From assembly GCA_016186325.1 (NCBI GenBank), contig JACPLW010000005.1, positions 17,191 to 81,190 on the forward strand: DNA of 64,000 nt. Reading direction: 5' to 3'. The notes beneath the pieces were generated by a model. That model saw only the letters and a program-made list of their open reading frames with translations. It was not told the origin of the DNA and searched no databases. Positions 3,306 to 60,022 of this stretch are shown one piece after another (the first letter of the stretch is position 1; each line of letters begins with the position of its first letter). The DNA is from Parcubacteria group bacterium. Its GTDB lineage: Bacteria > Patescibacteriota > Minisyncoccia > UBA10092. Position numbers and translations under genes: made by a program.

Positions 3306-3321
3306 GTTATTACATACAACA

Positions 3322-3358: not shown

Positions 3359-3374
3359 ATAAAAGTTTATTCCC

Positions 3375-28878: not shown

Positions 28879-28900
28879 GTATTTTATTCTAACACATTAG

Positions 28901-37112: not shown

Positions 37113-37244
37113 CCCCCACCCTTTCTAAATAAATTTTAAACGCGACCTTTGTTTGAGGTTTGTAATAATTATCATTAAATTTAATATATTTTTTCTTAGT
37201 CATAGTTTCAAATTAAAAAAGCGAAATTTAGAAAGGGTGGGGGA

Positions 37245-38312: not shown

Positions 38313-38354
38313 GTTTTATAATAAATAATTTAGAATTTTAACAAGATTTTATCT

Positions 38355-39926: not shown

Positions 39927-39937
39927 GTTTATAATTT

Positions 39938-40282: not shown

Positions 40283-40284
40283 AA

Positions 40285-41362: not shown

Positions 41363-41365
41363 ATT

Positions 41366-44882: not shown

Positions 44883-45682
44883 ACTTGAAAAATCTTCTGC
44901 TTGATCTGATTTTCCCTCGCCATTGCCTTGGTTGTAGAGTTGAACTCACGTCAAAACAGGCCTCGCTTATTTGCGCGGCCTGTTTTGACAAAATCATTTT
45001 AAATTCCGCCCTAAAATGCCACATATGCGGCTTAAGAATCGGCCGAATGGAGGTACACAAAAACTGCCGGAAAAAAACGAATATAAAAACTATATTTTCG
45101 GCCGGCCATTATAGCGATCCGATTTTAAGAGAAGCAATCCATGTTTTTAAATACCGCTCTATAGAATCTCTTAAAGAAATTCTGGCGGAATTAATGGTTA
45201 AATACATTAAAAAAGAGCGTCTTCTAAGCGAGTTCACCGATTCGATTTTGGTGCCGATTCCACTTACTCTAAGACGAAGAGTGATCCGCGGCTTTAACCA
45301 AAGCGAACTTCTGGCTAACGAGCTCTCAAAATTCCTTAACTGTCCGGTTGTGAACATGCTAACGCGAAAAAAATTTACGGCGCCGCAAGCCGACATTTCG
45401 GATTGGCAAAAAAGAAAAGAAAATGTTTCCGGCGCTTTTGCCTTATCCCCCCGCCCAGATTTTTCTGGGCGAGGCTCGCCCACTTTGTGGGCGGCATCTT
45501 ATCCACCCGCCAAAGGCGAGGCTCGCCCCGCTGCTGCGGGGCGGCAAAACTATCGATGTCCGACATCAATAATTTTAGTTGACGATGTTTCAACCTCCGG
45601 CGCCACTTTGGAAGAAGCAGCGTTGATCTTGAAAAAAGCCGGAGTAAAAGAAATTTACGGGTTAGTCGTCGCTAGGGGCTAG
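44879..45682 (+). CDS. comF: Competence protein ComF (phosphoribosyltransferase domain) carrying a ~100-nt GC-rich in-frame insertion
   Basis: N-terminal Cys4 (CLGC...CAAC); C-terminal PRTase motif IILVDDVSTSGAT. About 30 extra GC-encoded residues (SPRPDFSGRGSPTLWAASYPPAKGEARPAAAGRQ) sit between the GAF and ILVDDV motifs. Confidence 0.75.
   Translation: MNLKNLLLDLIFPRHCLGCRVELTSKQASLICAACFDKIILNSALKCHICGLRIGRMEVHKNCRKKTNIKTIFSAGHYSDPILREAIHVFKYRSIESLKEILAELMVKYIKKERLLSEFTDSILVPIPLTLRRRVIRGFNQSELLANELSKFLNCPVVNMLTRKKFTAPQADISDWQKRKENVSGAFALSPRPDFSGRGSPTLWAASYPPAKGEARPAAAGRQNYRCPTSIILVDDVSTSGATLEEAALILKKAGVKEIYGLVVARG
45446..45546. repeat. Composite ~100-nt GC-rich multi-hairpin element in-frame in comF
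   Basis: gcccagatttttctgggc; gggcgaggctcgccc (twice); ccccgctgctgcgggg. About 75% GC against a roughly 35% GC background. Confidence 0.6.
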
Positions 45683-46983
45683 CGCGGAATGATTTCTCTA
45701 AACTCCGGCAAAGCTAACGGAGAAATGGTAATTACCACTGATTTGGGAATTGAACCTCCTGGACCGGTGCAGGTCAAAGTGTAAGTAACGCTTGGCGGCG
45801 GCGAAGGTATCACCGTTTGACCAACAGAGTTATTCAAAGCCTTGGGGCCATTCCAATCGCTTTGAGTTGGATTACTTGAAGCGTTACAAGAAGTGGTATA
45901 AGTAGAATCCCACTTTAAAATTGAGCTTTGGCCTTGAAAAATGGAAGTTGGATTGGCCGAAAAATTAAGAGTTGGCGGACAACTGGGAGTATCAACATTC
46001 AAAGAATTCGATCGCCTAGTCCCGGCACTATTGTAGGCCTCAATCTGATAAAGATAGGAAGTATTTTGGCTGACGGTTGTGTCGGTAAAATTCAAAGCGA
46101 TATAGGGCTGATAAGGAGAAATGTCAACGCGAGCAGAGCCTCTTAAAATTCTATAGGCATCTGCTCCGCTTGAAGCAGTCCAAGTTAACCCCACAGAATT
46201 GCAAGCGATACTGCCTTGGCTTAGATTAAAACTTCCAGGTATCGAAATATAACCGGCCGTGACCGTTTTATTAGCGGTCATGGTCACATTGCATGTGCGG
46301 TTTCCACTCCCGCTGACGCTGTTGCATCCTGACCAGCTTGAAAAGTCGGCGGAGCCTTTGGTAGCGGGAGCAGTAAGAGAAAGACTGGTGCCATCTGTTA
46401 CAGTTTTGGTGTAGTTGGTCGTACCGCCATAAGTCGAGGGTGAACCGGTAATAGCAACGCTTGAAGCTCCGGAGGAGTTAACCGAGAGGGTGTAGTTGGC
46501 TGGAGCACAATTCGGAGTGATAAAAGATCGATTAGAGATTACACTGCTTCCATCGCGTAAAGCATATATGTAAGTAGTATTCGAATCTAAAGGATCCAGG
46601 GTTACGCTTCCACTTGCGGGAAGCGTAAACCAATCCCATCCCGCAGAATTATACATTCCAGACGGAGTATAAACTATCGAATCGCACCAGTAATTTTTGC
46701 ATACATCAAGATTTACTGCATGATTAGAATTAGAATTAGTCCAGCTGATTGTAGCCCGCGCGGTCTCGCCCACGCATGTAGGAGAGGATGCCGAAGAAGA
46801 TAAGCAGGCCGGAACCGATACACCGGCCCTGGTTTCCTGGGTCCACTGGGGAGAATCTGGGACGGCGGATAATTTTACGGCAGAAAAATTCGCCGATACC
46901 AAAACGTCGGCGGCAATAAATAGCCCGCCCAAAATTATAGCCGCTGAAATAATTATTTTTTTAGAAAAAAATGTGTTTGCCAC
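45679..46983 (-). CDS. Secreted Ser/Thr-rich surface protein (hypothetical)
   Basis: N-terminal signal/TM segment; S/T/N-rich repeats; no catalytic motif. Confidence 0.35.
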   Translation of the reverse strand: MANTFFSKKIIISAAIILGGLFIAADVLVSANFSAVKLSAVPDSPQWTQETRAGVSVPACLSSSASSPTCVGETARATISWTNSNSNHAVNLDVCKNYWCDSIVYTPSGMYNSAGWDWFTLPASGSVTLDPLDSNTTYIYALRDGSSVISNRSFITPNCAPANYTLSVNSSGASSVAITGSPSTYGGTTNYTKTVTDGTSLSLTAPATKGSADFSSWSGCNSVSGSGNRTCNVTMTANKTVTAGYISIPGSFNLSQGSIACNSVGLTWTASSGADAYRILRGSARVDISPYQPYIALNFTDTTVSQNTSYLYQIEAYNSAGTRRSNSLNVDTPSCPPTLNFSANPTSIFQGQSSILKWDSTYTTSCNASSNPTQSDWNGPKALNNSVGQTVIPSPPPSVTYTLTCTGPGGSIPKSVVITISPLALPEFREIIPR

Positions 46984-47038: not shown

Positions 47039-47851
47039 TTAATTATTGGCGCGACCAAGATTCTCATTTATTGCTTTTATGAAATCCGAAAGCCCTTCAT
47101 TGGCGCTTTCCGGATTATTTCCTGGATATGCGCGGCGCCATTCTTCAGAAGTAAGATCTTGCGCCAATTCTTTGGCTTTTTTAAAAGATTCCGCGGCAAC
47201 AGATTTTTTTTTAAGGTTTAATTGCGCCACGCCTAAGGCATTCCAGAGCCAGGGATTGTTTTCTCCCTCCAGTATTTCTTTTAACGCCATACTGACTATT
47301 TTTTCCGCTTCCATATATTTGCCTTGTTTTGACAAAACCCATGCCAAATCGTTATATCCGGCCCATTCACTTGGCGCCCACCTGGTGAATCGCCCAAAAT
47401 CTTCTCCAGCTTTTTCCAGGTCGCCCGCCTGATTTCTATACCCATAAATCAATCCCCGCACGTAAAGTGAGCGTAAATTTTCCGGATTAGCTGCCAGTTC
47501 TCTATTTATTTCTTCAAGCGCCCCGTTGTAGTCGCCTTTTACAAAAATAATCCGTGCCAGCTGATAGTGCCCCCAAAGAATTTTTGGATTTGCTGCGACC
47601 GCTTTTTCAAAAGCGATTTGGGCTTTTTTTAAATTGTATTCGCCTTGCCAAAGCGTGGCGCCAAAATAATAATTTCCTAAAAGCAGGGCAAAATCCGCGT
47701 CTTTACTTACCAGCCAGAGCGCGGCGTTCGGTTTGCCGTATTTTTGCCAGGCAATTTTTGCCAGGGCGTCCCGCGACAGCGCAAACCCCAAAAACGCAAT
47801 GACTCCTATTGAAAACCATAAGGGCCACTTATTAATTTTTAGGTTAATCAT
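47039..47851 (-). CDS. Membrane-anchored TPR-repeat protein
   Basis: N-terminal TM segment, then repeated 34-residue TPR-like units (W-LG-Y-A-F-A-P patterns). Confidence 0.5.
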   Translation of the reverse strand: MINLKINKWPLWFSIGVIAFLGFALSRDALAKIAWQKYGKPNAALWLVSKDADFALLLGNYYFGATLWQGEYNLKKAQIAFEKAVAANPKILWGHYQLARIIFVKGDYNGALEEINRELAANPENLRSLYVRGLIYGYRNQAGDLEKAGEDFGRFTRWAPSEWAGYNDLAWVLSKQGKYMEAEKIVSMALKEILEGENNPWLWNALGVAQLNLKKKSVAAESFKKAKELAQDLTSEEWRRAYPGNNPESANEGLSDFIKAINENLGRANN

Positions 47852-48909
47852 TCCAGTTTCAAAAGCTCAATCGTGAATTGCTCGCGATATCGAACCACAA
47901 AAATATTTTTCTCCGCGAATTTTTCGGTAAAGCTTAGATATTCCTCAAGATACTTTTTGGCGTTAATTTCATCGCCTTCCGCCAAATAAGAAAGAGCTAA
48001 AACCTGGGGACAAAAAGAATCAACGTAAGAATCGCCGGCAGGATCCGCTTTTTCGGCAACCGCGATCGCTTTACTATGATTTTCGCCGGCAGCATAAGCC
48101 GCCGAGAGAAAGCAATCCAAACCGCCGGCTTTTTTTATCTCGCCTTCGGCCAGAGTAAATTTTTTCTGACGGCCGTAATCCAAAGCCAAGAGCGAGTGAG
48201 CGATTCTGACTTCTAAAGATTGATCCGATAAATCCTTGTTTTCTACAACAAGCGCCGCATATTTTGAGGCGCTCGCGTAATCGCCTTTATATGAATAAAG
48301 GCGGGCTAAGAGCGTATGCACGCGAAACAGATTTCGCCCGTTAATATCGCTGGAACTGACAGCCGACGGTTCAATGGCGGGCAATAAAATATCCAGAGCT
48401 TCCTGCGGTTTGTTGGAACGACTAAAATAATCCAATGCCACAAAATACCGCGCCGCAAAAGCTCTCATTGGATTTAATTCAATGTATTTTAAAAATAAAG
48501 GCACCGATTTTTCATATTGTTTCAGCATGTAATAAGAAAAACCGGCATCATTGAGTGCTATTAAAGATATGTCCTTATTCTTACGCTCCAGACCGGAAGC
48601 AATCGCTTTTTCAAAATGAACTGCGGCGCCGGAATAGTCGGCACCGGGATAAAGTAAATCTATTCCCGGCGTCTCGGTTATTTTTCCCAGCGCAATTTTC
48701 CCTAAATAAAAATGCGACTCGGAATTTCTTGGATTGAATTTCAAAGACGCGTCCAAAAGCGGCTTTGCTTTAATAAAATCGCCTTTTAAAAACTCCGTTG
48801 CTCCTTGTTTTAAATAATACGCGCTTAGAAGCTGCGTACCGGCCAAAAAAATAAAAAGACCGGCTAAAACGACGATGCCCAGTCCAATCCATAAATTTTT
48901 TTTATTCAT
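47848..48909 (-). CDS. Membrane-anchored TPR-repeat protein
   Basis: N-terminal TM segment and multiple TPR-like repeats. Confidence 0.5.
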   Translation of the reverse strand: MNKKNLWIGLGIVVLAGLFIFLAGTQLLSAYYLKQGATEFLKGDFIKAKPLLDASLKFNPRNSESHFYLGKIALGKITETPGIDLLYPGADYSGAAVHFEKAIASGLERKNKDISLIALNDAGFSYYMLKQYEKSVPLFLKYIELNPMRAFAARYFVALDYFSRSNKPQEALDILLPAIEPSAVSSSDINGRNLFRVHTLLARLYSYKGDYASASKYAALVVENKDLSDQSLEVRIAHSLLALDYGRQKKFTLAEGEIKKAGGLDCFLSAAYAAGENHSKAIAVAEKADPAGDSYVDSFCPQVLALSYLAEGDEINAKKYLEEYLSFTEKFAEKNIFVVRYREQFTIELLKLE

Positions 48910-50314
48910 AATCTTTTAAACTCGTAAGCGAAGCCAAATGTTTTTTGGCCTCGCCGGAAAGTTTTTCCTGCCAATCCCCTGCAAGCTTTTTATATTCCGG
49001 CCGAAGCGCGGTATAAAATCCGGTAGACTCTAAAAGATAAGTTTCCTTTTGGCCGAAACCAATGGGACGCTTCGGATTTTCAAAACTCACCTCCACTGTG
49101 TCTCCGGGAATTAAATGGGTTTCTTTTTTTTCTTCTCCCCTAAGCTCGGTAGAAACGTCTCCCAACCGCGAGTGCAGCGCTTTTTTAATAGAAAGTTCTT
49201 CCCCAAATGCAGCAGTTAGATTAGTGGCCTTAGCAACTCCTATAAAACTAAGCCGGTGCCGTTTTGTAAAATCGGCTCTTACAACCAGCGAACCGTCTCC
49301 TGAAACCGCTTCTTTTGGCAAAGAAACAATCTCGGCGCCGTGCCTGAAACTTCTTGGTTTCTGAACTATAAGCGGAGTAAATTTCCCGGAAGAATTGCGA
49401 TAAGAAATATCAATTGACTTACTCGACATACTACCCGATCCTATGATAAGCGGCAAAAATGCCAAGCCTTCCGCCGGAAGCCAGCCCTTAAGGAGTAAAT
49501 AAAGTCCGCTAAAAACCGCAATTTTCGCAAAAGCGTAAGAACGAACAAGGGCGGAAAAGAAATTATGCTCTCTGGCTTTTTCGCCCGCCATATAGTCGCG
49601 ATATACAGAGCGCAAAACCAACAAAAGATTTTCATTTTTTGCGACACTTCGGAAGCCAAATTCAATTGAATCGCCTTTTTGAAAAAGGTCTTCGCGGCTC
49701 TCGGCAATGCTATTCCAAAGCCGGTCCTTTTTTTGGTTATAAAGATGGTTAATAGATTTTTTAGCGTTAAGGACTGAATTTGAAGGAAAAACGAGCTCTT
49801 TTTCAAATTCTTTCTTGCGCGCAAGATACGGCTCTTTTTTAACGGCATCTATAATTATTTCTTCATCTTTAGAGTGAACGATTCTTAAAAATTTAATCCG
49901 ATGGATAAACGATTCTTCCGGTTCAATTTCTAAAAGGCGCAGAGTTAGCGCTCCGTTGTATTTTTGAGGAGATGAAGAAAGTTTTAACATATCCGGCGCA
50001 GGAGCGCTCCACTTGTAGAAGATGTTAGCTAAGCCCGGTTCAAGCGTCTTGAACTCAGACGGGAGAAAGTCGTTTTCAATTTTGAATTCTTCACCGTCAA
50101 AATAAGCGACGTGGGGACAAGCCGTACGAGTAGTAGGAGCATCGGCATTGGCCTCATCCGCGCCAAACATACTTTTAGATAAAGAATCCTTTTCCGATGA
50201 TTTTTTCCCTTTAACTAAATTGGCAACATTAATAAACACCCAACCGAAAACCAAGAGCAGGACGAGGAGTGACGCTTTTAAAATAAAAGTAAAAGACGAG
50301 AAAAATTTTTTCAT
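48902..50314 (-). CDS. Membrane-associated hypothetical protein
   Basis: N-terminal TM segment; internal hydrophobic pair; no recognisable domain; co-directional with the YcaO/SagB genes. Confidence 0.3.
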   Translation of the reverse strand: MKKFFSSFTFILKASLLVLLLVFGWVFINVANLVKGKKSSEKDSLSKSMFGADEANADAPTTRTACPHVAYFDGEEFKIENDFLPSEFKTLEPGLANIFYKWSAPAPDMLKLSSSPQKYNGALTLRLLEIEPEESFIHRIKFLRIVHSKDEEIIIDAVKKEPYLARKKEFEKELVFPSNSVLNAKKSINHLYNQKKDRLWNSIAESREDLFQKGDSIEFGFRSVAKNENLLLVLRSVYRDYMAGEKAREHNFFSALVRSYAFAKIAVFSGLYLLLKGWLPAEGLAFLPLIIGSGSMSSKSIDISYRNSSGKFTPLIVQKPRSFRHGAEIVSLPKEAVSGDGSLVVRADFTKRHRLSFIGVAKATNLTAAFGEELSIKKALHSRLGDVSTELRGEEKKETHLIPGDTVEVSFENPKRPIGFGQKETYLLESTGFYTALRPEYKKLAGDWQEKLSGEAKKHLASLTSLKDYE

Positions 50315-50384: not shown

Positions 50385-51098
50385 TTAACCTCTCTTCGGC
50401 CATCCTAAAGAAAGCTGATAAAAAACAGTTTCTTCTTCATCTAAATCAAGCTCTTTTTGGACAACCTCATAATCCACTCCGCCCAGGGCCAAAATGCCCA
50501 AACCCACTGCCGCTCCTATCAGATAAATATTTTGTCCAATATGGCCGGCTTCAAGCATCCCGAATTTATATCCCAAGTTTCCGTATTTTTTCATTGTTCT
50601 GTCGCCGATAAAAGAAAGAAAAATAAGCGCGGCGGCGTTTTTGGCAAATTCATATGGCAGGGCTTCCGCGATTTTAGAAACATCGGAATGCCAAATTTCT
50701 TCAAGCGCGTGCTCTTTAAAATTATAATGATACGCCCCCTTTTCCAAGTCCTCGCCGCGAAAAACAACCGCGTACAGCTCTACCGGATAGCGCGCCCCGC
50801 CCGATGGATATGGCCGATGTAAAATATTCTTCCCGTCTTCCGATTTATGAAGTATACCCATGCTCCAAAAAAGCAGAGTTCCGAGAATTTCTTTAGAAAC
50901 GGGTCTCGCGGAAAATTCGCGCTCTGTCTTTCTTTTTAAAATAGCGTCGGACAGTTCAATGTTAAGCCGGGCGGGTTTTGGTAGCAAAATTTTCAGAGAA
51001 CGCGGGTATTCCTTAAAAGAAACTGTTTTCCACTCGGGCGATTCCGGGTCAATCAAGGGGCGGTTTTTATTAAAAAAATCAAAAAATGAATCGCTCAT
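50385..51098 (-). CDS. SagB-type dehydrogenase (nitroreductase-fold; azoline oxidase-like)
   Basis: Hallmark RPYPSGGARYPVELY motif of SagB/McbC-type dehydrogenases; FMN-binding nitroreductase fold. Confidence 0.7.
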   Translation of the reverse strand: MSDSFFDFFNKNRPLIDPESPEWKTVSFKEYPRSLKILLPKPARLNIELSDAILKRKTEREFSARPVSKEILGTLLFWSMGILHKSEDGKNILHRPYPSGGARYPVELYAVVFRGEDLEKGAYHYNFKEHALEEIWHSDVSKIAEALPYEFAKNAAALIFLSFIGDRTMKKYGNLGYKFGMLEAGHIGQNIYLIGAAVGLGILALGGVDYEVVQKELDLDEEETVFYQLSLGWPKRG

Positions 51099-52489
51099 AA
51101 AAATGGATGAGGTATTGGGTTTACATCTTTTCTTTTTATTCCCGAATACCTAAAACGCTCGTCAAGATAAAGATAATAAAGTTCCGGAATTAAAACTTTT
51201 GTAATCTTAAGGCCGGAGTCCTTGGCGGCTTTAGTGGCGTAATCAACGCCGTAGGCCTTCATCCCGCGCACCATTAAAATTTGTTTAAGTAACTCCATTT
51301 TTTTTTGATTACTTGCGCCGCCAAATTCATTTCTTTCAATTTTTTTTATCGGGCCGTCCAAAAGAAAATCAACCTCTCTCATCCGCGACTTATCGCACCA
51401 ATAAACCCTTCTTTCTTCAATGTTTTCAATTAACGGCACTTTTTTATTGACCGCCTCAATTTGCTCCCGAGAAACCGAATTCCAGTATCCGGCCCGAAGC
51501 CCTTCCAAAAGAGAATGTATTATCGCCGACTCGATATTCAAATCGGCTCCGGCTCCAAGGAAAATAGCGGGCCGGCCGATGGCATTATCGCGAATAACGG
51601 TGAGCACAACTGGAATTCCTAAATCGGCAGTTATATCTAAAAGCGCGAAATCAATTTTATATCTGCGATATTCGCCGATAATTTTAGCGATAGTTTTATT
51701 GCCTAAATTTTCAAGACCGCCTATATCAATTTTTGGCGGAGTTATCTTATTCAGCCAGTGAATCATCAGGGCATCGCGCTCTATTGCTTCTAGAATTGCG
51801 TGTTCCAAGGCCTGCTCCCGCGATACTCCGGCCGCAGCCCCGTTGGTAGTCGTCTGTCGAATAAGCGGCTCCTCCGGCAATCTTTCGTATCCCAAATAAA
51901 CGAGCTGGGCGGGAACAAAATGTTTTTTATTATCAAATAAAGAATAACACGGCGCCCAGCCAAATCGTGAATTTTCATCAACTTGAAAACCGCGGAAAGC
52001 GCGCGGGTCAATCGCACCATTTGATTTTAATTCTTTCCACGAGCCATAAATGAAATTTCTTTTATCATAAAGAGTTAAAGAATGCCACTCAATTAATTCG
52101 GCAAACGCTTTGATTGCCGCCATATCGTAATTCAGAGCGTATCCGGAAGCGGTTTTACCTTTGCCGAATTTTAAATTCAAAGCCGGAACGCTGGGCCAAT
52201 CGGGTATCGGCTTGGGAAACGAGATTTGTTCCAATATACCCTCTTCATACAAGTATTTAATTAGCGAATGAAATCGCGGGGGAACACGGTCAAGACCGGA
52301 ATCGGTTTTCTTCACATAAATATTTTGGCCGTTTAATTTCTCTAAAGCAAGAGCCGTGCCTTTAAAAATGTGAACCAAAAACTCGGTTAAAAAACTATTT
52401 ACAGAAAAAGGCGGTCCAAGAGAACGCGCGTAATTTTCCCAAAAGTCGCCTAATCTTTCGGCGCGCAAAAATTCACCCTTGTTCTCCAT
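51095..52489 (-). CDS. YcaO-domain protein (cyclodehydratase family) with ~130-aa N-terminal extension
   Basis: YcaO signature TNGAAAGVSREQALEHAILEAIERDA. Start placed at the internal Met (MENKGEFL): the ORF-track start at 52546 would overlap the divergent epimerase start. Confidence 0.7.
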   Translation of the reverse strand: MENKGEFLRAERLGDFWENYARSLGPPFSVNSFLTEFLVHIFKGTALALEKLNGQNIYVKKTDSGLDRVPPRFHSLIKYLYEEGILEQISFPKPIPDWPSVPALNLKFGKGKTASGYALNYDMAAIKAFAELIEWHSLTLYDKRNFIYGSWKELKSNGAIDPRAFRGFQVDENSRFGWAPCYSLFDNKKHFVPAQLVYLGYERLPEEPLIRQTTTNGAAAGVSREQALEHAILEAIERDALMIHWLNKITPPKIDIGGLENLGNKTIAKIIGEYRRYKIDFALLDITADLGIPVVLTVIRDNAIGRPAIFLGAGADLNIESAIIHSLLEGLRAGYWNSVSREQIEAVNKKVPLIENIEERRVYWCDKSRMREVDFLLDGPIKKIERNEFGGASNQKKMELLKQILMVRGMKAYGVDYATKAAKDSGLKITKVLIPELYYLYLDERFRYSGIKRKDVNPIPHPFL

Positions 52490-52540
52490 GTGTTTTAATT
52501 CTATTATCTTAATGTATTTATAACACCAAAAATAGACAAA

Positions 52541-53443
52541 ATGCAAAACATTTTAATAATCGGCGGTTCGTATTTTGTCGGGCCAATTATTATGGATAAA
52601 CTGTTAAAACAAGGGTTTGAACTTACTGTTTTTAATCGTGGCCGGGTAAAAACCGAGTATCCGGCCGGCGTTAACTTCATCCGCGGCGACAGAAACAACG
52701 GTTTCAATATAACCGAACACTTTGACGCAGTTATAGACATGTGTTCTTATACCGGAAAGCAAACACGGCAAGCAATTAAAGAATTAAAATTTGATCTCTT
52801 CATTCATATGGGAACCGCCGCCGCTTATAAAAAAACTGTCCCCTTGCGGGGGATCTCCCGAATGGAGAAAACTCTTCTGCTTACCGAAGATTCACCTCTT
52901 GGCGATTGGCCGCTTTGGGGCGATTATAATAAAGGCAAAGTGGAATGCGAAAAAGTTCTTAAAGAAAGCGGAATAAAATACGCCGCGATGCGTCCGGTTT
53001 ACATTCTCGGGCCACATAATTATCTTCCGAGAGAAAGCTTTATTTATTCAAAAATAGGAAAAAGCGAACCGATAATCATCCCCGGAAACGGCCACGCTTT
53101 AATACAACTTGTTTGGGCAAACGACGTCGCAGAATCAATAATAATGCTTGTCGAAAAAAAACTTGCGGGCGCCTTTAATTGCGCCGGAGATGAAACAATA
53201 ACGCTCGTTGATTTGGTTAAGATGATGGGGAAAATCGCCGGTCAAGAACCGGTTTTACGATTTAATCCGCTTACCGATGGAGAAAATTTTAACGATGCAG
53301 AATTTCCTTTTGCCAACGAGAATTTTATCGTGTCAAATGAAAAATTAAAAAGCGTCGATATGGTTTTTGCTCCCTTAGAAAATTTTTTGCGGGAAGATTA
53401 TGAAAACTACTACAAAACCGCTTTAATTGACATATTTGCTTAA
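52541..53443 (+). CDS. NAD-dependent epimerase/dehydratase (extended SDR)
   Basis: Rossmann GGSYFVG N-terminus; carries a short GC-rich palindrome (tccccttgcggggga). Confidence 0.8.
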   Translation: MQNILIIGGSYFVGPIIMDKLLKQGFELTVFNRGRVKTEYPAGVNFIRGDRNNGFNITEHFDAVIDMCSYTGKQTRQAIKELKFDLFIHMGTAAAYKKTVPLRGISRMEKTLLLTEDSPLGDWPLWGDYNKGKVECEKVLKESGIKYAAMRPVYILGPHNYLPRESFIYSKIGKSEPIIIPGNGHALIQLVWANDVAESIIMLVEKKLAGAFNCAGDETITLVDLVKMMGKIAGQEPVLRFNPLTDGENFNDAEFPFANENFIVSNEKLKSVDMVFAPLENFLREDYENYYKTALIDIFA

Positions 53444-53496: not shown

Positions 53497-53934
53497 GTGA
53501 ACAGGCAGATTGTTCTTTCATTTGGGTGGTTTATAATATTAGCGGTTACTATCGGCGCCTGCGCTTCCGCGGGCTATTATAAGAACGATAGATTCGATAA
53601 CGACCCTATCTCCTACCTTGTCGGAGAATGGGAAGGCACTATCAATGCCGGAGAAAGTTCTCTCTCGACATTCAGAAAACTTACAATTTACCCGCAATCG
53701 GCAAATTCAACCCTAAGCGCGCATTACGGAATTCCGGGAACGCGCTGGCAGGGTCCGGCCCAGGTTTACGTTGAAACTTTCGACGGAAAAATAGGAATTA
53801 GATTCCGAACGGGATCAGGTTCGAGAATCGACCTATGGCTTGCGCGCATTGGCAATGACTTGATCCTCGACGGTACGTTCAATACACCATCGGGCGTGCC
53901 GTATCAATTTATGCTTACGAAAAAACGCGAGTAA
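53497..53934 (+). CDS. Putative lipoprotein (GTG start)
   Basis: Signal peptide with a lipobox-like TIGAC; RBS aagggag upstream of the GTG. Confidence 0.35.
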   Translation: MNRQIVLSFGWFIILAVTIGACASAGYYKNDRFDNDPISYLVGEWEGTINAGESSLSTFRKLTIYPQSANSTLSAHYGIPGTRWQGPAQVYVETFDGKIGIRFRTGSGSRIDLWLARIGNDLILDGTFNTPSGVPYQFMLTKKRE

Positions 53935-54014: not shown

Positions 54015-55016
54015 ATGGAAACAACAAAAATCAGCGTGGTAATAGCAACATACAACCGCGATCATCTCGTAACCAGAGCGCTTGCGGCTTTGGCCAGGCA
54101 AAATTTACCGAAAGGTTTTTTTGAAATTATCGTTGTGAACGACGGTTCTACCGATGGAACTGAAGAAGAAGTTAAAAACTTCATTAAAAAAAACACATCA
54201 TCCTACATTACTTTAATAACCCTTGAAAAAAACCTCGGCTCTTCGTTTGCCAGAAACACGGGAATACTCTCCTCAAAAGGAGAATTCATTGCCATAACCG
54301 ATGACGACTGCATTGTCCCGTCCGACTGGCTTTCTCAATTCTTGAAAGCGTTTGAGACAAACCCGGAAATCATTGCCGTCGGCGGATTTAAAAAACCGCA
54401 TCGCGATAATGGATTAAAACCGAGCCGCTACGACATTTTTATGTTCTGGCGCCGGCTTCCATTTATGAAAACAGAATGCAAATCTGTTGAAATGAACCCA
54501 TTTAACAACTGCGGAGATACGGCAAATGTGTGCTACCGGAAACAAGCGCTTGAGGCCGTCGGCGGCTTTAATAACGACATAAGAACATTTAACGACTGGG
54601 AACTAAAAATCCGGCTCCATCAGCTTGGTTCACCTCTTCTCTATCGTCCAATATTTATTCCGCATGAAGCTGATTTAAAATTCGGTAAATTTCTTAAATA
54701 TTGGCTTCGGCTGGGATATGATTGTTTTCTTATTTCAAAAATCCATCCGGAGCACCCCGTTTTCAATACTTCGCTGCGAACTACTTTGAGACGAATAATA
54801 GCCGGCGTATCACGTATTATAAAAGCTCCGAGTGATGAAATTTTTTCCCCCTACGGGGGATCCCCCGCCCGCTTCGCCGGAGCTTCAGCGAGGCGAGAAG
54901 GGGGACAAAAAAAAATTTCACAAACCCTATTTTTTATTTTTCTTGAAATAATTCTGAACACATGCCTGTGGCTTGGAAAATATATAACGCCAAAAATTAA
55001 AAAAGCTCTTTTATAA
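54015..55016 (+). CDS. Family 2 glycosyltransferase with GC-rich element near the 3' end
   Basis: ISVVIATYNRDH...EIIVVNDGSTDGT GT-A motifs and a DDD-like motif (ITDDDC). Confidence 0.75.
   Translation: METTKISVVIATYNRDHLVTRALAALARQNLPKGFFEIIVVNDGSTDGTEEEVKNFIKKNTSSYITLITLEKNLGSSFARNTGILSSKGEFIAITDDDCIVPSDWLSQFLKAFETNPEIIAVGGFKKPHRDNGLKPSRYDIFMFWRRLPFMKTECKSVEMNPFNNCGDTANVCYRKQALEAVGGFNNDIRTFNDWELKIRLHQLGSPLLYRPIFIPHEADLKFGKFLKYWLRLGYDCFLISKIHPEHPVFNTSLRTTLRRIIAGVSRIIKAPSDEIFSPYGGSPARFAGASARREGGQKKISQTLFFIFLEIILNTCLWLGKYITPKIKKALL
54846..54906. repeat. GC-rich hairpin element in-frame near the 3' end of the GT2 gene
   Basis: tccccctacggggga followed by cccccgcccgcttcgccggagcttcagcgaggcgagaaggggg. 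Confidence 0.5.
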
Positions 55017-56370
55017 CTATAGTAATGCGTTTTAAAAACGGTAATGATTTTATTTTTAAAAACGCCTGTTGACTGTAATAATCCATTATTTTTCTATCCG
55101 ACCGGCCCGTAACACCAAGAGCATTTGAATATCCCCTAAACGCCTGGTATTCCGCTTCAAACACGTGATATAAAATCGGCTTTTCCGGGAGGCGCTTTAG
55201 AAAAACGAGTTTTTTAATGGCCGCGGCGGCGCGCTCGCCGCATTTTCCATCGCTATAAGCAAAAATTTCTTCCCGCAATTTTTTTCTTGCTTCCTGAAAC
55301 TGCCGACCATCAGCTAATGCCTGTTCCAACGCGTTTTTAAATTCTACCGCTTTTTTAAGAGCAACAACCGAACCGTCTTCTTTTATCCTTTGTTCAATGC
55401 TCCCCGAATAAGTCAGAGCGCCTTCGGGCAGGCGGAATTTAAATGATTTTAATTTTTTGTGGCTTTCATTTAAATATTTTTCCGACAAAAAATCCGTAAC
55501 CACAACCGGTTTATCGGTTAAAACGGCGTCAAAAATTGCGCTGGAGTTATCGCTTACCACTACATCAGCAACTTTAAAAAATGGCTGGGTATCGCTTTCA
55601 TCCTGGAAAAGCAGAATACCGTCATGTTGCAACTTCTTTATACGATCAGGTTCTTCGAGCGGGGTATAATAATGGGGCTTTACCAAAATATTATAATACG
55701 ACGCGTTTTTCACGAGCTCCACGGCAAGTTCGTCTATGGAGGAAAGATCGCCGTGAGTCGGAAGATAAAGAACGGTTTTTTTTGAAGGGTCCAATTTTTT
55801 TTTAATTTCTGAAACCGCGTTTTTGTCCACGGCATCATTAAACCAATCGTCAAATTTCGGATAACCGACAATCTCCGCCCAAGTTAAGAATTTAATAATT
55901 TCATATACGCGCGGTCCCAGGCAAAGATACAGGTCCCAGTCCCTGTGACGAGACCAGAACATAGTGAGCTCTTTCCCCGCACCGTAATTCATATGAACTT
56001 TGCGCGCCTTATCGGTCTGGGGGATAACCAGACAGCCGCTTCTCCATAACCCCACCAAAGCTTTATAATTTGAAAAAAAATCCGTAAGATATCTTTGTTG
56101 CTGATAGTCCTCATAATTAAGAATCCTGAAATAAACTCCTTGTTGTGTCAAAAGCCGAACACAATTTTCAATAATTTCCGGCGACGGACGGAGTGGAAAA
56201 AACCGGCCGCAGTCAACGATAAACTCCGCTTCGTCTTTAAGGTGCTCGTATACATTCTTAAACACGTTAAACTGAAAAGGATAAAAAACAACAAACCCGA
56301 TTTTGGCGTTCGGATTAGGGCTGTCTTGGTACTTTTTATTCTCATTAAAACTAATTTCCATAGAGATCAT
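54997..56370 (-). CDS. CDP-glycerol glycerophosphotransferase-like (TagB/TagF family) protein
   Basis: Weak family resemblance (YLPTHGD... SDNSSAIFDAV... PVVVTD) and context with a cytidylyltransferase. Confidence 0.4.
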   Translation of the reverse strand: MISMEISFNENKKYQDSPNPNAKIGFVVFYPFQFNVFKNVYEHLKDEAEFIVDCGRFFPLRPSPEIIENCVRLLTQQGVYFRILNYEDYQQQRYLTDFFSNYKALVGLWRSGCLVIPQTDKARKVHMNYGAGKELTMFWSRHRDWDLYLCLGPRVYEIIKFLTWAEIVGYPKFDDWFNDAVDKNAVSEIKKKLDPSKKTVLYLPTHGDLSSIDELAVELVKNASYYNILVKPHYYTPLEEPDRIKKLQHDGILLFQDESDTQPFFKVADVVVSDNSSAIFDAVLTDKPVVVTDFLSEKYLNESHKKLKSFKFRLPEGALTYSGSIEQRIKEDGSVVALKKAVEFKNALEQALADGRQFQEARKKLREEIFAYSDGKCGERAAAAIKKLVFLKRLPEKPILYHVFEAEYQAFRGYSNALGVTGRSDRKIMDYYSQQAFLKIKSLPFLKRITIVIKELF

Positions 56371-57146
56371 TTTTTTAAAAAATGTTTAATCATTGCGATA
56401 TCGTATGGAAAAGTTATTTTATGAATTGGATGTTCGGACTCAATAAGTCGAATTCGGATTTTCCGATTAAAATGCTTCAACAACTCAATATTATCCGCCA
56501 AGTCAAATATTTTTTTATCAACAGATTTTTTGTGAGCCTCATAAAGGTCTTTGAACCGAAAACACTGAGGGGTAAAGCCGCAATAGGCGGCTTCTTTGGG
56601 CACGGCTCGATGTATGTGCTTGCCATCGGCTTCAAGAATAAGGTCGGGCGCTTTTCCGGCGACAACCGCTCCGCCGCAACGAACGGCTTCGCGAATAACG
56701 CTGCTAATTACGTTTCCTGAAATTGTCGGACGAGCGGCGTCGTGAAAAATAACATAATCCGGCGGGTATCCTTTTTCCCTAAAATCAAAAAGTGCTCGTG
56801 AAGACGACAATTTTCGCGTTTTTTCACACGGGATCACCCTGACTTTTTCACTATTTAATTTTTCTTGAATAAGGCGTTTAACATATCTTACTTTTTGTTC
56901 AGGAACAACAACAATGATTTCGTTGATAAATTTATCGGCAATAAATTTTTCCAAAGAATAAAAAAGTACCGGTTTACCGCCAATTTTTAAAAATTGCTTA
57001 AACCGTCCCCCCATGCGCTCTCCCCCGCCTCCTGCCAGAAGCACGGCCGCAACAGTTGGTTTTTTTTTACCTTTTATCATGAAAAATAAAGACCTCCGTT
57101 TACGTGAATGCATTGGCCGGTAATATATGAAGCATCGTTGGAACAA
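56367..57146 (-). CDS. IspD/TarI-family sugar-alcohol-phosphate cytidylyltransferase
   Basis: AAVLLAGGGGERMGG nucleotidyltransferase P-loop; about 260 aa. Confidence 0.65.
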   Translation of the reverse strand: MFQRCFIYYRPMHSRKRRSLFFMIKGKKKPTVAAVLLAGGGGERMGGRFKQFLKIGGKPVLFYSLEKFIADKFINEIIVVVPEQKVRYVKRLIQEKLNSEKVRVIPCEKTRKLSSSRALFDFREKGYPPDYVIFHDAARPTISGNVISSVIREAVRCGGAVVAGKAPDLILEADGKHIHRAVPKEAAYCGFTPQCFRFKDLYEAHKKSVDKKIFDLADNIELLKHFNRKIRIRLIESEHPIHKITFPYDIAMIKHFLKK

Positions 57147-57847
57147 AGAAAAGATACAACACTTGAAACTTCCTCAGGTTTTCCGAACCTTTTGAGTGGA
57201 ATTTTTTCTAATTTATTAGAGGATGCCCCGTCTCCAAATCGCCGAAGCATATTGGTATTAATATAGCCGGGAACAATGGTGTTAACAAGAACTTTTGGCG
57301 CCAGCTCGAGCGTAAGAGCCCTGGCAAGACCCATGATCGCACTTTTTGAGACTACATATGCAGTGCGACTTTTTGACCCGATAAAAACATTTGACGATGA
57401 AACAAAAATAATTCGGGGAGACGCCGAGCCGTGAAGCAATGGTAAAAAGTTCCTGGTAAGAACGGTTGCACCAAAAAGGTTTGTTTCAAGAACGCTTCTA
57501 AAATCTCTATCCTTAAAACTCGCAAAATTTTGCGTAAGATTAATGCCGGCGCTATTTATCAAGACATCAAGTTTTCCCCGCGTTTTTTTTACAAGCTTAA
57601 CCATTCGGATAATATCTTTTTCTTTTGTAATATCACCCTGGAGAAGCAAACACGGCGTATTTTTTGCTTTTAATTCGCCCGCAAGTGACAATGCCGGCCT
57701 TTTTGTTTTTTTATCTTTAAAATTTATGGCAACAAAAAATCCGTCATCGGCCAATCGCAACGCGATAGCTCTCCCTATCCCGCTTGAGGCACCGGTTATC
57801 AGTGCGGTTTTTGTATATAACGAACTTTTTTTTTCGGTGTTACTCAT
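57077..57847 (-). CDS. Short-chain dehydrogenase/reductase (SDR)
   Basis: TGASSGIG cofactor motif; YxxxK catalytic region. Confidence 0.75.
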   Translation of the reverse strand: MSNTEKKSSLYTKTALITGASSGIGRAIALRLADDGFFVAINFKDKKTKRPALSLAGELKAKNTPCLLLQGDITKEKDIIRMVKLVKKTRGKLDVLINSAGINLTQNFASFKDRDFRSVLETNLFGATVLTRNFLPLLHGSASPRIIFVSSSNVFIGSKSRTAYVVSKSAIMGLARALTLELAPKVLVNTIVPGYINTNMLRRFGDGASSNKLEKIPLKRFGKPEEVSSVVSFLCSNDASYITGQCIHVNGGLYFS

Positions 57848-57851
57848 AATT

Positions 57852-58928
57852 TTAACTTTTTAATATATCGTATTTCGTAAACATCTTGCCAAGGTTAAAA
57901 CTAAAAAAACGAATAAGCGTCATAAATTTATAAGGTCTATGTAACAAGTGTCTTTTAAGAACGGAGAATGTGTAGGGATTGCGTAAAGATAGATTCGGCC
58001 TGATTTTTTCCAAAACATCTTTGTTTAATTTCATGAAAAGCCAGTAATTCGCGCCACGGCGAAAATAAAGTTTCGCTAAAGAACTCAATTTTAGATGGGA
58101 CAAATGAATAACGTGCGTGGGCAGATAGAGAATTTTATTGTTACCATGCAAAATCCGCAGTGCCAAATCGTTGTCTTCATATCCGGGCCAACGGAATTCT
58201 TCCCTAAAACCACCCATTTTTTCTAATATATCCCTGCGATACGACATATTAGCCGTATTATATGCGAAGGTCTCAAAACATACCATCGGATCGTTACTTA
58301 TTATTTCATGCGATAAAAGAAATGGGCTTATTCGGGAATCATAAAAAAAACTGACATAATAAATAAATTTTGCCACAACATTGCGCTCAAGCTTTTCTTT
58401 CGGCGGGATCTGCCAGCCCCCTACCCCTGCGACACCCGGATATCTATTATGACCGTCTAAAAGCGTCTCCATCCAATCCGGCAAAACAATGCAATCATCG
58501 TCTGTAAAAAAAATAATTTCTCCCCTTGCTTCTTTTATACCAAAGTTTCTGGCTTTAGCCGGCCCGCCATTTTCAATTTTGAAATACCTGATTTCCGGTT
58601 TTGCTTGCCCGCCGAAGCCTCGGCGTAAGCGGGTATTTTGTATTTTGTATTTTGCGATTTGCGACTCGGTGTCATCGGTTGAGCCGTCGTCAACCACAAT
58701 GATCTCGTAATTATCTTTGGGAACGGTTTGTTTTATTAAATGGCTTAGGGCGTTTATAAGACACTTAGAGCGATTATATGTCGGCACAATAATGGAACAG
58801 AAGAAATATGTATTTTGTGCGGCAGCATCCACGCCGTTGAATGGTTTGAGTTTTTTAAAGACGCTCCTTTTCCTATCATATCTTTCTTCCGTGAGAGTAA
58901 ACACTGCGTTCCCTATTTCATTTTTCAT
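57852..58928 (-). CDS. Family 2 glycosyltransferase
   Basis: SIIVPTYNRSKCL...EIIVVDDGSTDDT; DDC motif; contains an in-frame (gtatttt)x3 heptamer repeat. Confidence 0.7.
   Translation of the reverse strand: MKNEIGNAVFTLTEERYDRKRSVFKKLKPFNGVDAAAQNTYFFCSIIVPTYNRSKCLINALSHLIKQTVPKDNYEIIVVDDGSTDDTESQIAKYKIQNTRLRRGFGGQAKPEIRYFKIENGGPAKARNFGIKEARGEIIFFTDDDCIVLPDWMETLLDGHNRYPGVAGVGGWQIPPKEKLERNVVAKFIYYVSFFYDSRISPFLLSHEIISNDPMVCFETFAYNTANMSYRRDILEKMGGFREEFRWPGYEDNDLALRILHGNNKILYLPTHVIHLSHLKLSSLAKLYFRRGANYWLFMKLNKDVLEKIRPNLSLRNPYTFSVLKRHLLHRPYKFMTLIRFFSFNLGKMFTKYDILKS
58632..58665. repeat. Heptanucleotide tandem repeat (gtatttt)x3 plus gcgatttgcga inside the GT2 gene
   Basis: gtattttgtattttgtattttgcgatttgcgac. 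Confidence 0.5.
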
Positions 58929-60018
58929 AAAAAGTTTTTATAAGCGCAAAAACCCGATGGATATCCTCTTCGGCAATATTGGAGCCGGTCGGCAAAACCA
59001 AAGATTCTTCCGCTATTCTCTCAGCAACCGGAAAATCGCCTTTTTTATAATCCAAATAACAAAACGCTTCAAAATGTGGAAGCGGGACGCCGTATTGAAT
59101 CCGGCTATCCACTCTGTTTTCACGCAAAAATTTATGTAATTCATTTCTTTTTTTAGTCAAAACAACGTAACGGTATCCGTTAATAAAATAGTTTTGCGGC
59201 ACCAATGGAATAATTAAATCGCCGATGCCCTCAAGAAGCCGCGAATATAAGAAGTAATTTTCGCGTCGTCGCCTAATAATACCGTCTAAATTTTCCATTT
59301 TAACATTCATAATCGCGGCATGAAACGGAGAAAGACGGCTGGCCACTCCGATAGTCGGATGTTTAGCGCTAAGATTCTCAAAAGTTGTTCCGTACATTCT
59401 CAAAAGAGAAATTTTATCGGCAATTGTCTTATTATTTGTGATTATCGCTCCGCTATCTCCGAATCCGTTTAAAATTTTTGACGGATTAAAGCTTAGACAG
59501 GCGATATCACTATAATATCCCGGGTGACGATTTTTATATTTTGAACCGACGGCCTGCGCCGCGTCTTCTATCAAAAATAAATTATGTTTTTTAGCCAATT
59601 CAGAAATTTTTTCCATGTCCGCCATTATTCCGTTAAGATGGGTGACAATAATACCCTTTGTTTTTAGAGTTATAGCTTTTTCAATTAAATTTGGATTGAT
59701 GTTGAAACTGCTTAATTCAATATCAACAAAAACCGGTTTGGCGTTAATCCAGGCAATCGCTCCGGCAGTCGAAAAAAAACTCACCGCCGGTACAATTACC
59801 TCGTCTTCGGGACCGATATTGAATGCCTTAAGAGAGAGAATTAAAGCATCGGTGCCGCTAGCCACCCCCAAGGCATATTTAGCGCCGGTGTATTCCGCGA
59901 GAACTTTTTCAAAAATCCTTACCGGCTTTCCCAACATAAAATCGCCGACGTTTTTCCCCTTCAAAACAATTCCAGCCAAAGCATTGATGATTTTTAATTT
60001 TAGGAATAGTTCATTCAT
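58918..60018 (-). CDS. DegT/DnrJ/EryC1/StrS-family PLP-dependent sugar aminotransferase
   Basis: Fold-type I aminotransferase motifs typical of the DegT family (ALGVASGTDAL; Lys-containing SFNPSK). Confidence 0.8.
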   Translation of the reverse strand: MNELFLKLKIINALAGIVLKGKNVGDFMLGKPVRIFEKVLAEYTGAKYALGVASGTDALILSLKAFNIGPEDEVIVPAVSFFSTAGAIAWINAKPVFVDIELSSFNINPNLIEKAITLKTKGIIVTHLNGIMADMEKISELAKKHNLFLIEDAAQAVGSKYKNRHPGYYSDIACLSFNPSKILNGFGDSGAIITNNKTIADKISLLRMYGTTFENLSAKHPTIGVASRLSPFHAAIMNVKMENLDGIIRRRRENYFLYSRLLEGIGDLIIPLVPQNYFINGYRYVVLTKKRNELHKFLRENRVDSRIQYGVPLPHFEAFCYLDYKKGDFPVAERIAEESLVLPTGSNIAEEDIHRVFALIKTFYEK

Positions 60019-60022
60019 TGGG

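Follow-up and report, generated by a model that had tools for sequence, protein, structure and literature searches.

The window, a 64-kb stretch of DNA from a Parcubacteria group bacterium, encodes on its minus strand a YcaO cyclodehydratase and a SagB-type dehydrogenase which, as judged from their sequences and intact motifs, are a genuine TOMM/LAP-type enzyme pair. What is new here is the subfamily to which this YcaO belongs, with its rare orphan N-terminal domain and its linkage to a membrane protein of 470 residues (P470). We give about an even chance to the proposal that a variable loop of P470 is where the pair installs azol(in)es. The retention of an azole-forming pair in a reduced genome, which the first-pass annotation held to be unusual, is not in itself news, since YcaO plus nitroreductase clusters from CPR bacteria have already been published; Sharrar 2020 (PMC7298704) gives 110 of them in 93 CPR genomes, 89 with an adjacent nitroreductase.

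The YcaO and SagB-type enzymes

The cyclodehydratase (464 aa, 51095-52489, minus strand) is read from an ATG at 52489 that is conserved in the family, and in the ORF listing it lies within a frame of 51095-52546 that contains TNGAAAGVSREQALEHAILEAIERDA. Formally, this frame reaches a TTG at 52546, a start that would overlap that of the divergent epimerase. The protein matches the Pfam YcaO family (PF02624, E=4e-56, residues 115-437), its acidic ATP/Mg2+-binding motifs are intact, with the conserved ExxE/ExxERD present, and the NCBIfam model TIGR03604 (SagD) scores 203.7 bits, slightly below its cutoff of 219.25. A profile search of the PDB returned MusD, TruD and LynD at 1e-41 to 1e-37, MusD being the best sequence match; E. 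coli YcaO was not among the matches at E<=1e-3. By sequence, the YcaO domain is closest to the azoline-forming cyanobactin heterocyclases LynD/TruD/MusD. Assignment to the E. coli type (TIGR00702), a clade whose members measure about 586 aa and carry a C-terminal domain, formerly known as 'RimO accessory factor', is rejected on a TIGR00702 score of 59 bits, under the cutoff, and on the same PDB search. The McrA-type, thioamide-forming assignment is rejected as well (TIGR03266, 95 bits vs a cutoff of 365), and TfuA is absent among the scanned neighbours.

A Pro-rich C-terminal tail (PxPxP-like) is a requirement for cyclodehydratase activity. Across the YcaO family the C-terminus reads ...NxxPHP(F/M)L and aligns to ...NPTPMPF of TruD; the protein of the window retains the terminal NPIPHPFL, without the preceding 17 residues. 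The tail is 17-22 residues shorter in this protein and its closest relative, whereas it is kept in the rest of the family and in LynD/TruD. Comparison with a 79%-identical relative carrying a similar tail deletion gives a dN/dS of 0.19, and at the sequence level both YcaO and SagB are under purifying selection.

The SagB-type, FMN-dependent azoline dehydrogenase (237 aa, 50385-51098, minus strand; RPYPSGGARYPVELY in the ORF listing) scores 121.1 bits with TIGR03605, well over the cutoff of 78.4. The YcaO stop and the SagB start share an ATGA, read directly in the sequence, which makes the translational coupling proposed in the first-pass annotation plausible. The nearest solved structures are 3eo7, the BmdC oxidase, CyaGox/ThcOx and McbC, which places the enzyme closest to known azoline oxidases, and the motifs RPYPSGGARYP and KKYG, the latter being the Lys-Tyr motif aligned with PKYG of BmdC, are present. 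Thus the pair itself, as recognised in the first reading, is borne out by PF02624, TIGR03605 and the catalytic motifs. That reading had named an E. coli-type YcaO and a loss of catalytic residues as arguments against it; the TIGR00702 and PDB profile scores point away from the former, and the motifs are intact in both YcaO and SagB.

In two relatives (L003 and L004) SagB is fused to a HemK-type methyltransferase in which NPPY is present, with scores of 131-156 bits for TIGR00536, above the cutoff of 115.5, and of 153-168 bits for the PrmC equivalog TIGR03534, under the cutoff of 199. Targets of the HemK/PrmC family include release factors and ribosomal protein L3. The HemK-type domain is absent from the SagB of the window and from the whole 64 kb. 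Known 500-aa methyltransferase-SagB fusions were missing from the matches returned, so the homolog listing is incomplete and absence from it was not counted as evidence.

The orphan N-terminal domain and the search for a precursor

Residues 1-112 of YcaO (52154-52489, minus strand) form a domain of about 112-114 aa conserved in 21 of 21 full-length homologs; the first-pass annotation had rightly seen an extension here, although its estimate of about 130 aa was too long. A confident fold is predicted (pLDDT about 86-94, AF2/DSSP) with the order β-α-α-β-α-β, namely β(10-12), α(13-22), α(33-53), β(58-60), α(71-82) and β(88-90). The Pfam search of this domain gave no match. When its profile was run against 1.84 billion (1.84e9) protein cluster representatives, 41 matches were found in all, 35 of them YcaO proteins of about 500 aa carrying the domain at the N-terminus, and the subfamily with this domain is rare and CPR-restricted. 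The RRE, in its strict definition, is a winged-helix domain with the order βββ-ααα (PMC12710340), and an RRE identity is rejected on the predicted fold order. The YcaO-SagB locus holds no fused RRE and no E1-like/ocin-ThiF gene, in agreement with the first-pass annotation, and the N-terminal domain is a candidate docking module for the substrate, standing in for the E1-like/RRE partner.

The lack of an adjacent precursor, also pointed out in that annotation, extends to the entire window, where none of the small intergenic ORFs in our scan had a tail rich in Cys/Ser/Thr; the 70-nt gap between SagB and P470 (50315-50384) contains no ORF. Intergenic Cys-rich small ORFs were found in none of the 17 extended-family loci, those with a YcaO carrying the N-terminal domain. 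Other Cys-rich small ORFs in these loci were rejected as precursors, all of them being out-of-frame or antisense inside larger genes. The identical scan found canonical precursors beside the nearest non-extended YcaO-SagB relatives (L007, L041, L045, L046, L047, L053 and L054). These share 31-34% identity and likewise have YcaO followed by SagB; they differ in lacking both the N-terminal domain and P470, and their classical precursors of 55-84 aa, with Cys-rich cores (for example, CKGCGCTGCSCVQC), are placed immediately beside the enzymes.

P470, its variable loop and its linkage to YcaO

The gene following SagB encodes P470 (470 aa, 48902-50314, minus strand), the proposed substrate of the pair, which is listed at NCBI as hypothetical protein HYW79_02030 and belongs to no Pfam family. 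It comprises an N-terminal TM helix, two β-sandwich domains and an internal variable loop, here residues 293-300 (SGSMSSKS, 49415-49438, minus strand; loop peptide LPLIIGSGSMSSKSIDISYR), between the conserved LPLIIG and IDISYRN. The loop is the largest indel hotspot of the family, with a length of 5-32 residues (7-19 where identity with the P470 of the window reaches 71% or more), and it is predicted to be disordered (pLDDT <50). Its composition is 22% Gly, 23% Ser and 11.6% Cys, and Cys amounts to 0.7% of the whole protein, a 16-fold enrichment in the loop over the rest. Loop motifs such as VQCGCSCAC (from L004/L029), YGSSSSSSSCAC and SGGGGGGGGGGDGGSMCGG look like the cores found in classical YcaO-SagB relatives; in the window and in L031, however, the loop is short and Cys-free although YcaO is present. 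As for topology, hydropathy and positive-inside counts give a clear TM1, a marginal second hydrophobic segment (KD19 about 1.5) and ambiguous flanking charges, and the CBM-like β domains together with the secreted neighbours hint at a possibly extracellular loop.

In each of the 19 loci whose flanks are long enough to tell, the extended YcaO has P470 as its neighbour, P0134 (contig starting 280 bp upstream) and L016 (contig ending 1.2 kb after SagB) being uninformative for context. This adjacency survives rearrangement, as SagB is divergent in L037 and P470 lies on the opposite strand in L038; in L049, L057 and L083, YcaO is directly upstream of P470. In P470 modules without YcaO (L076, L077, L078, L079 and L085) the loops are Cys-free and have 5-8 residues, with the exception of L082, which has an 18-residue Gly/Asp/Ser loop and no YcaO within 6 kb. 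Loop Cys occurs in 13 of 16 YcaO-linked P470 proteins vs none of six YcaO-less ones (Fisher test, p about 0.001, uncorrected), a figure that, like the synteny, is inflated by the shared ancestry of related genomes among the loci. In the P470 tree, members without YcaO are scattered among the others, so that there are at least four independent contrasts; taken by themselves, the four sister contrasts do not reach significance. Tailoring genes are found between YcaO and P470 in relatives: besides the SagB fusion with a HemK-type methyltransferase, L034 has a class I methyltransferase and L081 an SDR. In L076, a standalone HemK-like gene lies directly upstream of P470.

Downstream of P470 the co-directional block continues, as the first-pass annotation described, with TM-anchored TPR proteins, the first of 353 aa (47848-48909, minus strand; TPR_2/TPR_12), which shares its first 8 nt with the end of P470 and is syntenic with P470 in loci both with and without YcaO, and the second of 270 aa (47039-47851, minus strand; TPR_17/TPR_2/TPR_19), which has a 4-nt overlap with the former and 50-70% identity in syntenic loci. 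The block ends with the gene of a secreted or surface protein of 434 aa (45679-46983, minus strand) with a signal-anchor, Ig-like repeats and a weak Flg_new_2 match, the C-terminal part of which shows 65-68% identity in L028, L029 and L076. This module of P470, two TPR proteins and surface protein adjoins teichoic-acid-like and type IV pilus genes. On the upstream side, the divergent NAD-dependent epimerase noted in the same annotation (52541-53443, plus strand; PF01370) marks the boundary, and in relatives without YcaO it is directly followed by P470 or a methyltransferase (epimerase<>P470 in L077 and L078, epimerase<>MT-P470 in L076). The non-coding spacer between SagB and P470 (minus strand) contains a promoter-like site, with a sigma-70-like match, TTTACA-16-TATACT, at 50356-50329 (10 of 12 positions). 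Such a promoter fits P470-TPR being an older operon, with YcaO-SagB inserted upstream later.

Proposed modification of P470, alternatives and known systems

In the mechanism that we propose, the ATP-using YcaO would turn Ser/Cys residues into azolines by cyclodehydration and the SagB-type flavoprotein would oxidise these to azoles, the substrate being the disordered, hypervariable Gly/Ser/Cys-rich loop of P470 (SGSMSSKS here). The subfamily would have done away with the small leader-core precursor as well as with the E1-like/RRE partner, the N-terminal domain presumably docking P470, and the enzymes would gain access to the loop on the cytoplasmic side or modify it before membrane insertion. 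P470, the two TPR proteins and the surface protein form a conserved module. In sister lineages, a methyltransferase of the HemK/PrmC (N5-glutamine) family occurs either as a fusion with SagB or as a standalone gene upstream of P470. The complete picture of a protein-level TOMM, in which the loop of an envelope P470 is heterocyclised after docking by a private domain and the HemK enzyme of sister lineages methylates a conserved Gln of the loop, is more tentative, and we rate it somewhat short of an even chance. The guess of a protein substrate, made in the first reading, is thus favoured by the comparative data, with the very next gene, P470, as the candidate, while the chemistry is a prediction.

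A classical LAP, whose small leader-core precursor would be encoded outside the 64-kb window, with P470 and the TPR proteins as mere neighbours or serving export or immunity, seems unlikely, even if some RiPP systems do have unlinked precursors. The published survey describes an 84-aa precursor adjacent to the enzymes in CPR LAP clusters (PMC7298704), and the epimerase-P470-TPR-TPR-ComF-ClpB block is conserved even without YcaO, so that the synteny owes something to inheritance and not to function. However, an adjacent precursor is missing from all 17 extended-family loci and present in the nearest non-extended relatives, YcaO remains beside P470 through rearrangements, the composition of the loop tracks the presence of YcaO, and no RRE or E1-like module is at hand to read a leader.

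A different backbone chemistry acting on P470 is rather improbable: YcaO might catalyse an ATP-dependent, MusD-like cleavage, splitting P470 or freeing a peptide, or form only azolines or an amidine, with SagB acting elsewhere or in some lineages only. MusD, the best PDB sequence match of YcaO, cleaves a peptide bond hydrolytically via an acyl-phosphate (PMC10885120), and YcaO and P470 are found without an adjacent SagB in three loci (L049, L057 and L083), L081 having an SDR instead; yet SagB is coupled to YcaO in the window and in most loci and keeps the Lys-Tyr motif, which argues for azoline-to-azole chemistry, and the loops are enriched in Cys and Ser, the nucleophiles that cyclodehydration needs. 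There is a slim chance, by analogy with E. coli YcaO and uL16, that the enzymes would act on another protein, whether one of the operon (a TPR protein or the surface protein of 434 aa) or a cellular protein unrelated to it, given that YcaO enzymes with protein substrates exist (PMC13063428) and that SagB is fused in relatives to a HemK/PrmC-family methyltransferase. But this YcaO is of neither the E. coli nor the McrA type, the 434-aa protein shows little conservation, with other proteins taking its position in relatives, no Cys/Gly/Ser-rich variable segment was noticed in the TPR proteins on informal inspection, and the HemK-like gene directly upstream of P470 in L076 also points to P470. Finally, the loss of 17 residues of the conserved YcaO tail and a P470 loop without Cys might suggest that the pair is decaying and no longer functional in this genome; this we regard as very improbable in view of the dN/dS of 0.19, the catalytic motifs, which are all intact, the retained NPIPHPFL and the full-length ORFs with their precise overlap.

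If the P470 loop is indeed modified by the YcaO/SagB pair, RiPP-type chemistry would extend to ordinary structural proteins, and for the first time azoles would be installed on such a protein and not on a dedicated precursor peptide, a new kind of substrate. It would also provide a leader-independent recognition module usable in engineering, explain the many 'orphan' CPR/Patescibacteria YcaO clusters mined without a precursor, and point to an envelope component diversified after translation in organisms whose life is spent attached to other cells.

The pair is similar to McbBCD, SagBCD, BalhCD and the plantazolicin system in combining a YcaO (D) with a SagB/McbC dehydrogenase (B) and, as proposed here, a Gly-Ser/Gly-Cys-rich target, the P470 loops resembling their cores; unlike McbBCD and other LAP/TOMM systems, the window has no C/E1-like scaffold and no small leader-bearing precursor, and the candidate core sits midway in a 470-aa membrane protein. 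To our knowledge, the only substrates described for azole-forming YcaO enzymes are small leader-core peptides, which end up as secreted natural products, and we know of no such enzyme that modifies a loop inside a large protein. In LynD/TruD/PatD/MusD (PDB 4v1t, 4bs9, 7u58), a fused E1-like and RRE region of about 400 aa binds the leader, whereas here an unrelated domain of 112 aa is found, and the PatE-like precursor and the PatA/PatG proteases of cyanobactin systems are missing. The CPR LAP clusters of Sharrar 2020 come from identical phyla and have the identical enzyme pair, but the published example, with an 84-aa precursor and a peptidase beside YcaO, is unlike the window, and the passages of that paper matched by a term search make no mention of a membrane-protein partner or an N-terminal domain (PMC7298704). 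Our literature searches returned generic reports of CPR LAP clusters only, with no description of the extended-YcaO subfamily.

There is precedent for YcaO enzymes with protein substrates, as E. coli YcaO acts on uL16 and the methanogen YcaO/TfuA on McrA, in both cases recognising a folded protein instead of a leader peptide, as would be the case here; these substrates, the ones known so far, are thioamidated (PMC13063428), and the E. coli and McrA-type enzymes differ in installing thioamides, in having no SagB partner and in belonging to other YcaO clades. The long, structured leaders of the NHLP/Nif11 type, recognised via protein-protein contacts, offer another parallel, in that the partner of an azoline-forming YcaO is structured and protein-like there, and not a short linear leader (PMC12455567). 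NHLP precursors, however, are dedicated proteins of about 100 aa with a C-terminal core, while P470 is a multi-domain membrane protein whose candidate core is internal.

The YcaO–SagB pair and its surroundings

The YcaO gene lies on the minus strand of the window (51095-52546 in the ORF listing; a family-conserved ATG at 52489 gives 464 aa) and is joined by an ATGA overlap to the gene for a 237-aa SagB-type protein (50385-51098, minus). After a 70-nt spacer with one promoter-like match follow P470, a 470-aa membrane protein (48902-50314), two TM-anchored TPR proteins, TPR353 (47848-48909) and TPR270 (47039-47851), and a 434-aa surface protein (45679-46983), all on the minus strand, with overlaps of 8 nt between P470 and TPR353 and of 4 nt between TPR353 and TPR270. 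In NCBI an identical YcaO protein is named 'YcaO-like family protein [Parcubacteria group bacterium]' and P470 'hypothetical protein HYW79_02030'. A divergent epimerase starts at 52541. Next to this gene is a 145-aa lipoprotein-like ORF without a Pfam family (53497-53934, plus), which is conserved in the related locus L003 (46% identity) and missing from the majority of the remaining syntenic loci. A set of teichoic-acid-like glycopolymer genes (54015-61375) lies immediately upstream of the epimerase and encodes two GT2 glycosyltransferases, a TagF-like glycerophosphotransferase, an IspD/TarI-like cytidylyltransferase, an SDR and a DegT aminotransferase; it recurs with the P470 modules of relatives. 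Downstream of the P470-TPR module are ComF, ClpB and type IV pilus genes. The pilus assembly cluster (35880-42445, minus) encodes PilC-like T2SSF, PilT-like and PilB-like ATPases, PilO, PilM and, in the PilN position, a 174-aa ORF without assignment, and a pilin-like ORF of 112 aa (31993-32331) lies beyond it. A tmRNA gene (22868-23278, plus; Rfam 114.6 bits; tag peptide GKTNLTPALAFA) and tRNA-Arg(CCG) (28900-28972, minus) are also present.

Residues 115-437 of the YcaO match the Pfam YcaO family (4e-56), and its score against TIGR03604 (SagD), 203.7 bits, is slightly below the cutoff; the McrA-thioamidation (TIGR03266) and E. coli (TIGR00702) types were rejected, with scores far under their cutoffs. 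In a structure search with a profile of 21 full-length homologs, the best matches were the cyanobactin heterocyclases MusD, TruD and LynD (2e-41 to 4e-37), with an alignment extending through the C-terminal tail; the M. jannaschii thioamide YcaO (2e-19) and McbD (1e-7) also matched, and E. coli YcaO did not at E<=1e-3. The ExxE and ExxERD acidic motifs and the NGxAAG motif are invariant across the family, and dN/dS is 0.19 between the window YcaO and a 79%-identical relative. The SagB protein passes TIGR03605 (121 bits, cutoff 78.4) and carries the RPYPSGGARYP and KKYG Lys-Tyr motifs; its closest solved structures are the azoline oxidases 3eo7, BmdC, CyaGox/ThcOx and McbC. The first-pass annotation had named E. 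coli-type placement of the YcaO, or a loss of catalytic residues, as what would refute its reading; with these scores, matches, motifs and dN/dS neither applies, with the caveat of a shortened C-terminal tail (below).

The same annotation had seen neither an E1-like partner nor an adjacent precursor, and their absence is borne out: no E1-like/ocin-ThiF gene was found among the neighbours of the pair, nor any small ORF with a Cys/Ser/Thr-rich tail in the whole 64-kb window. The N-terminal extension of the YcaO is real, although it spans ~112 residues, not the ~130 previously estimated, and it is conserved in every full-length homolog. The RRE/E1-like fold sought in it did not appear: its confidently predicted b-a-a-b-a-b order differs from the strict RRE order bbb-aaa, it has no Pfam match, its structural neighbours include no RRE or E1, and profile comparison with fused E1-YcaO proteins gave nothing significant. 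Among 1.84 billion cluster representatives the domain profile had only 41 matches, 35 of them YcaO proteins of ~500 aa with the domain N-terminal; the domain is rare and private to this extended YcaO family.

Linkage of P470 to the extended YcaO

Scans of genome and metagenome collections and contig look-ups yielded ~30 distinct loci with an extended YcaO, a P470 homolog or both, and every extended-YcaO locus with enough flank (19/19) contains a P470 homolog. The commonest order is YcaO-SagB-P470-TPR-TPR, and rearrangement does not break the association: L037 has a divergent SagB, L038 carries P470 on the other strand, and in L049, L057 and L083 P470 follows YcaO directly. Since the P470-TPR-TPR-surface protein module also occurs without YcaO/SagB, where it follows the same epimerase directly (L077, L078) or comes behind other sugar genes (L079, L085) or a standalone HemK-like methyltransferase (L076), it is, judging from gene order, probably an older envelope module, ahead of which YcaO/SagB was inserted as an accessory.

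Accessory genes between YcaO and P470 differ among lineages. In several syntenic relatives (L003:9502-11007; L004:9480-10982; also L026, L029, L030 and L031) SagB is fused to a HemK-type methyltransferase. The 500-aa product begins with this domain, of the HemK/PrmC family of N5-glutamine methyltransferases, which has the NPPY motif and scores over the TIGR00536 cutoff. The standalone copy in L076 (1673-2368) lies between epimerase and P470, with neither YcaO nor SagB. A Gln (G-x-Q-...) is found in the P470 loop, a hypervariable segment, in 5/5 methyltransferase-bearing loci with a readable loop and is lost in most YcaO-linked loci without the methyltransferase; the window has neither the methyltransferase domain nor the Gln. 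Elsewhere, the gene between YcaO and P470 is a TehB-like class I SAM methyltransferase (L034:10447-11073) or a 330-aa ORF without a Pfam family (L005:9375-10367), and in L081 an SDR plus NTF2/DUF4440-like protein (2040-4805) replaces SagB. The position of such tailoring genes, between the YcaO gene and that of P470, fits a substrate-centred cluster.

The hypervariable loop of P470

The P470 alignment has a single outstanding indel hotspot, flanked by a conserved LPxxxG and the likewise conserved KSIxFSY strand, where AF2 predicts a disordered segment (282-298) between two beta-sandwich domains. The loop is SGSMSSKS in the window (49415-49438) and VQCGCSCAC, VQCGCGCEC, TQCPGCLC, YGSSSSSSSCAC, TAASSSCGAGGCTNDCKS, SGGGGGGGGGGDGGSMCGGKS or GGGSSSSSSACC in others; some are Gly/Thr/Asp-rich, 31-32 residues long and end in CC. 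It is 5 to 32 residues long across the family, and 7 to 19 in proteins at least 71% identical to window P470. Gly makes up 22% of it, Ser 23% and Cys 11.6%, the Cys content of the whole protein being 0.7%. The CBM-like predicted folds hint at an extracytoplasmic location, a weak point for modification of the loop by the pair; as to topology, TM1 is evident, a second hydrophobic stretch is marginal and the flanking charge bias is ambiguous.

Among proteins with known context, the loop contains Cys in 13/16 YcaO-linked P470s, the remaining three being Ser/Thr-rich, and in 0/6 YcaO-less ones, five of which have minimal loops, for example VQAKS or VQGGKS (Fisher's test ~p=0.001, uncorrected for phylogeny, the loci being non-independent). 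In a loop-masked tree the two classes are interspersed, giving four sister contrasts, and Cys was gained on the YcaO-linked side in three. Four further homologs outside that table share a contig with a SagB homolog by contig matching (three Cys loops, one Ser/Thr loop); P0137, the fifth match, belongs to locus L080, which the table includes. Exceptions to the correlation are the window and L031, whose loops are short and Cys-free, and L082, whose P470 homolog (5995-7569) has an 18-residue Gly/Asp/Ser loop (GGDSGDSASDGGGFQPKS) while the 6 kb upstream contain no YcaO; a CapK-like ligase and a PQQ beta-propeller protein are encoded there.

Proposed substrate of the pair and comparison with known systems

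The most economical reading of these sequence patterns, to which we give about an even chance, is that Ser/Cys residues of the P470 loop are the target of the extended YcaO/SagB pair, which would turn them into azol(in)es. An unlinked peptide, as suggested earlier, is rather unlikely as the substrate: the nearest relatives without the N-terminal domain (31-34% identity), which also lack P470, encode YcaO-SagB pairs that adjoin textbook precursors of 55-84 aa with CxC-rich cores, in loci from metagenomes and Gammaproteobacteria MAGs (L007:4626-4802, MKPEIENFKEYSPKEVASSGTKCQSCKGCGCTGCSCVQCTQCGIESAGKLKINLKKAA; L041:107-274; L045:2638-2847; L046:6741-6995; L047:2672-2869; L053:3585-3752; L054:167-358), and the same scan found none in 17 extended-family loci. 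The cores of those precursors resemble the Cys-rich P470 loops. It is improbable that the YcaO acts on P470 by another chemistry, for example an ATP-dependent cleavage like that of MusD, and more so that the pair modifies another protein. Decay of the pair is most improbable of all: 17-22 residues of an otherwise conserved C-terminal tail (LYEAPVKMGVFKxPKKEEE, window 51095-51180; kept by the other family members and by LynD/TruD/MusD) are missing from the window YcaO and from L086, its closest relative, and the window loop is Cys-free, but the YcaO dN/dS, the terminal NPIPHPFL still present and the intact YcaO/SagB motifs weigh against it.

An azole-forming pair in a reduced genome had seemed unusual. 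The CPR survey figures of Sharrar et al. 2020 (PMC7298704) include 110 YcaO 'LAP' clusters in 93 genomes, 51 of them Parcubacteria and 89 with an adjacent nitroreductase, and an example cluster with an 84-aa precursor and a peptidase, so the mere presence of the pair is not novel. The searched literature yielded no description of the extended-YcaO architecture. The enzymes are of known kinds and their CPR occurrence is published; what appears to be new is the subfamily architecture, which combines an orphan N-terminal domain and the lack of both E1/RRE partner and precursor with HemK-SagB fusions and obligatory linkage to a membrane protein that carries a core-like hypervariable loop. On the reading favoured above, this subfamily would, compared with classical systems, have replaced the leader peptide plus RRE/E1 partner by a private docking domain and the loop of a resident protein.
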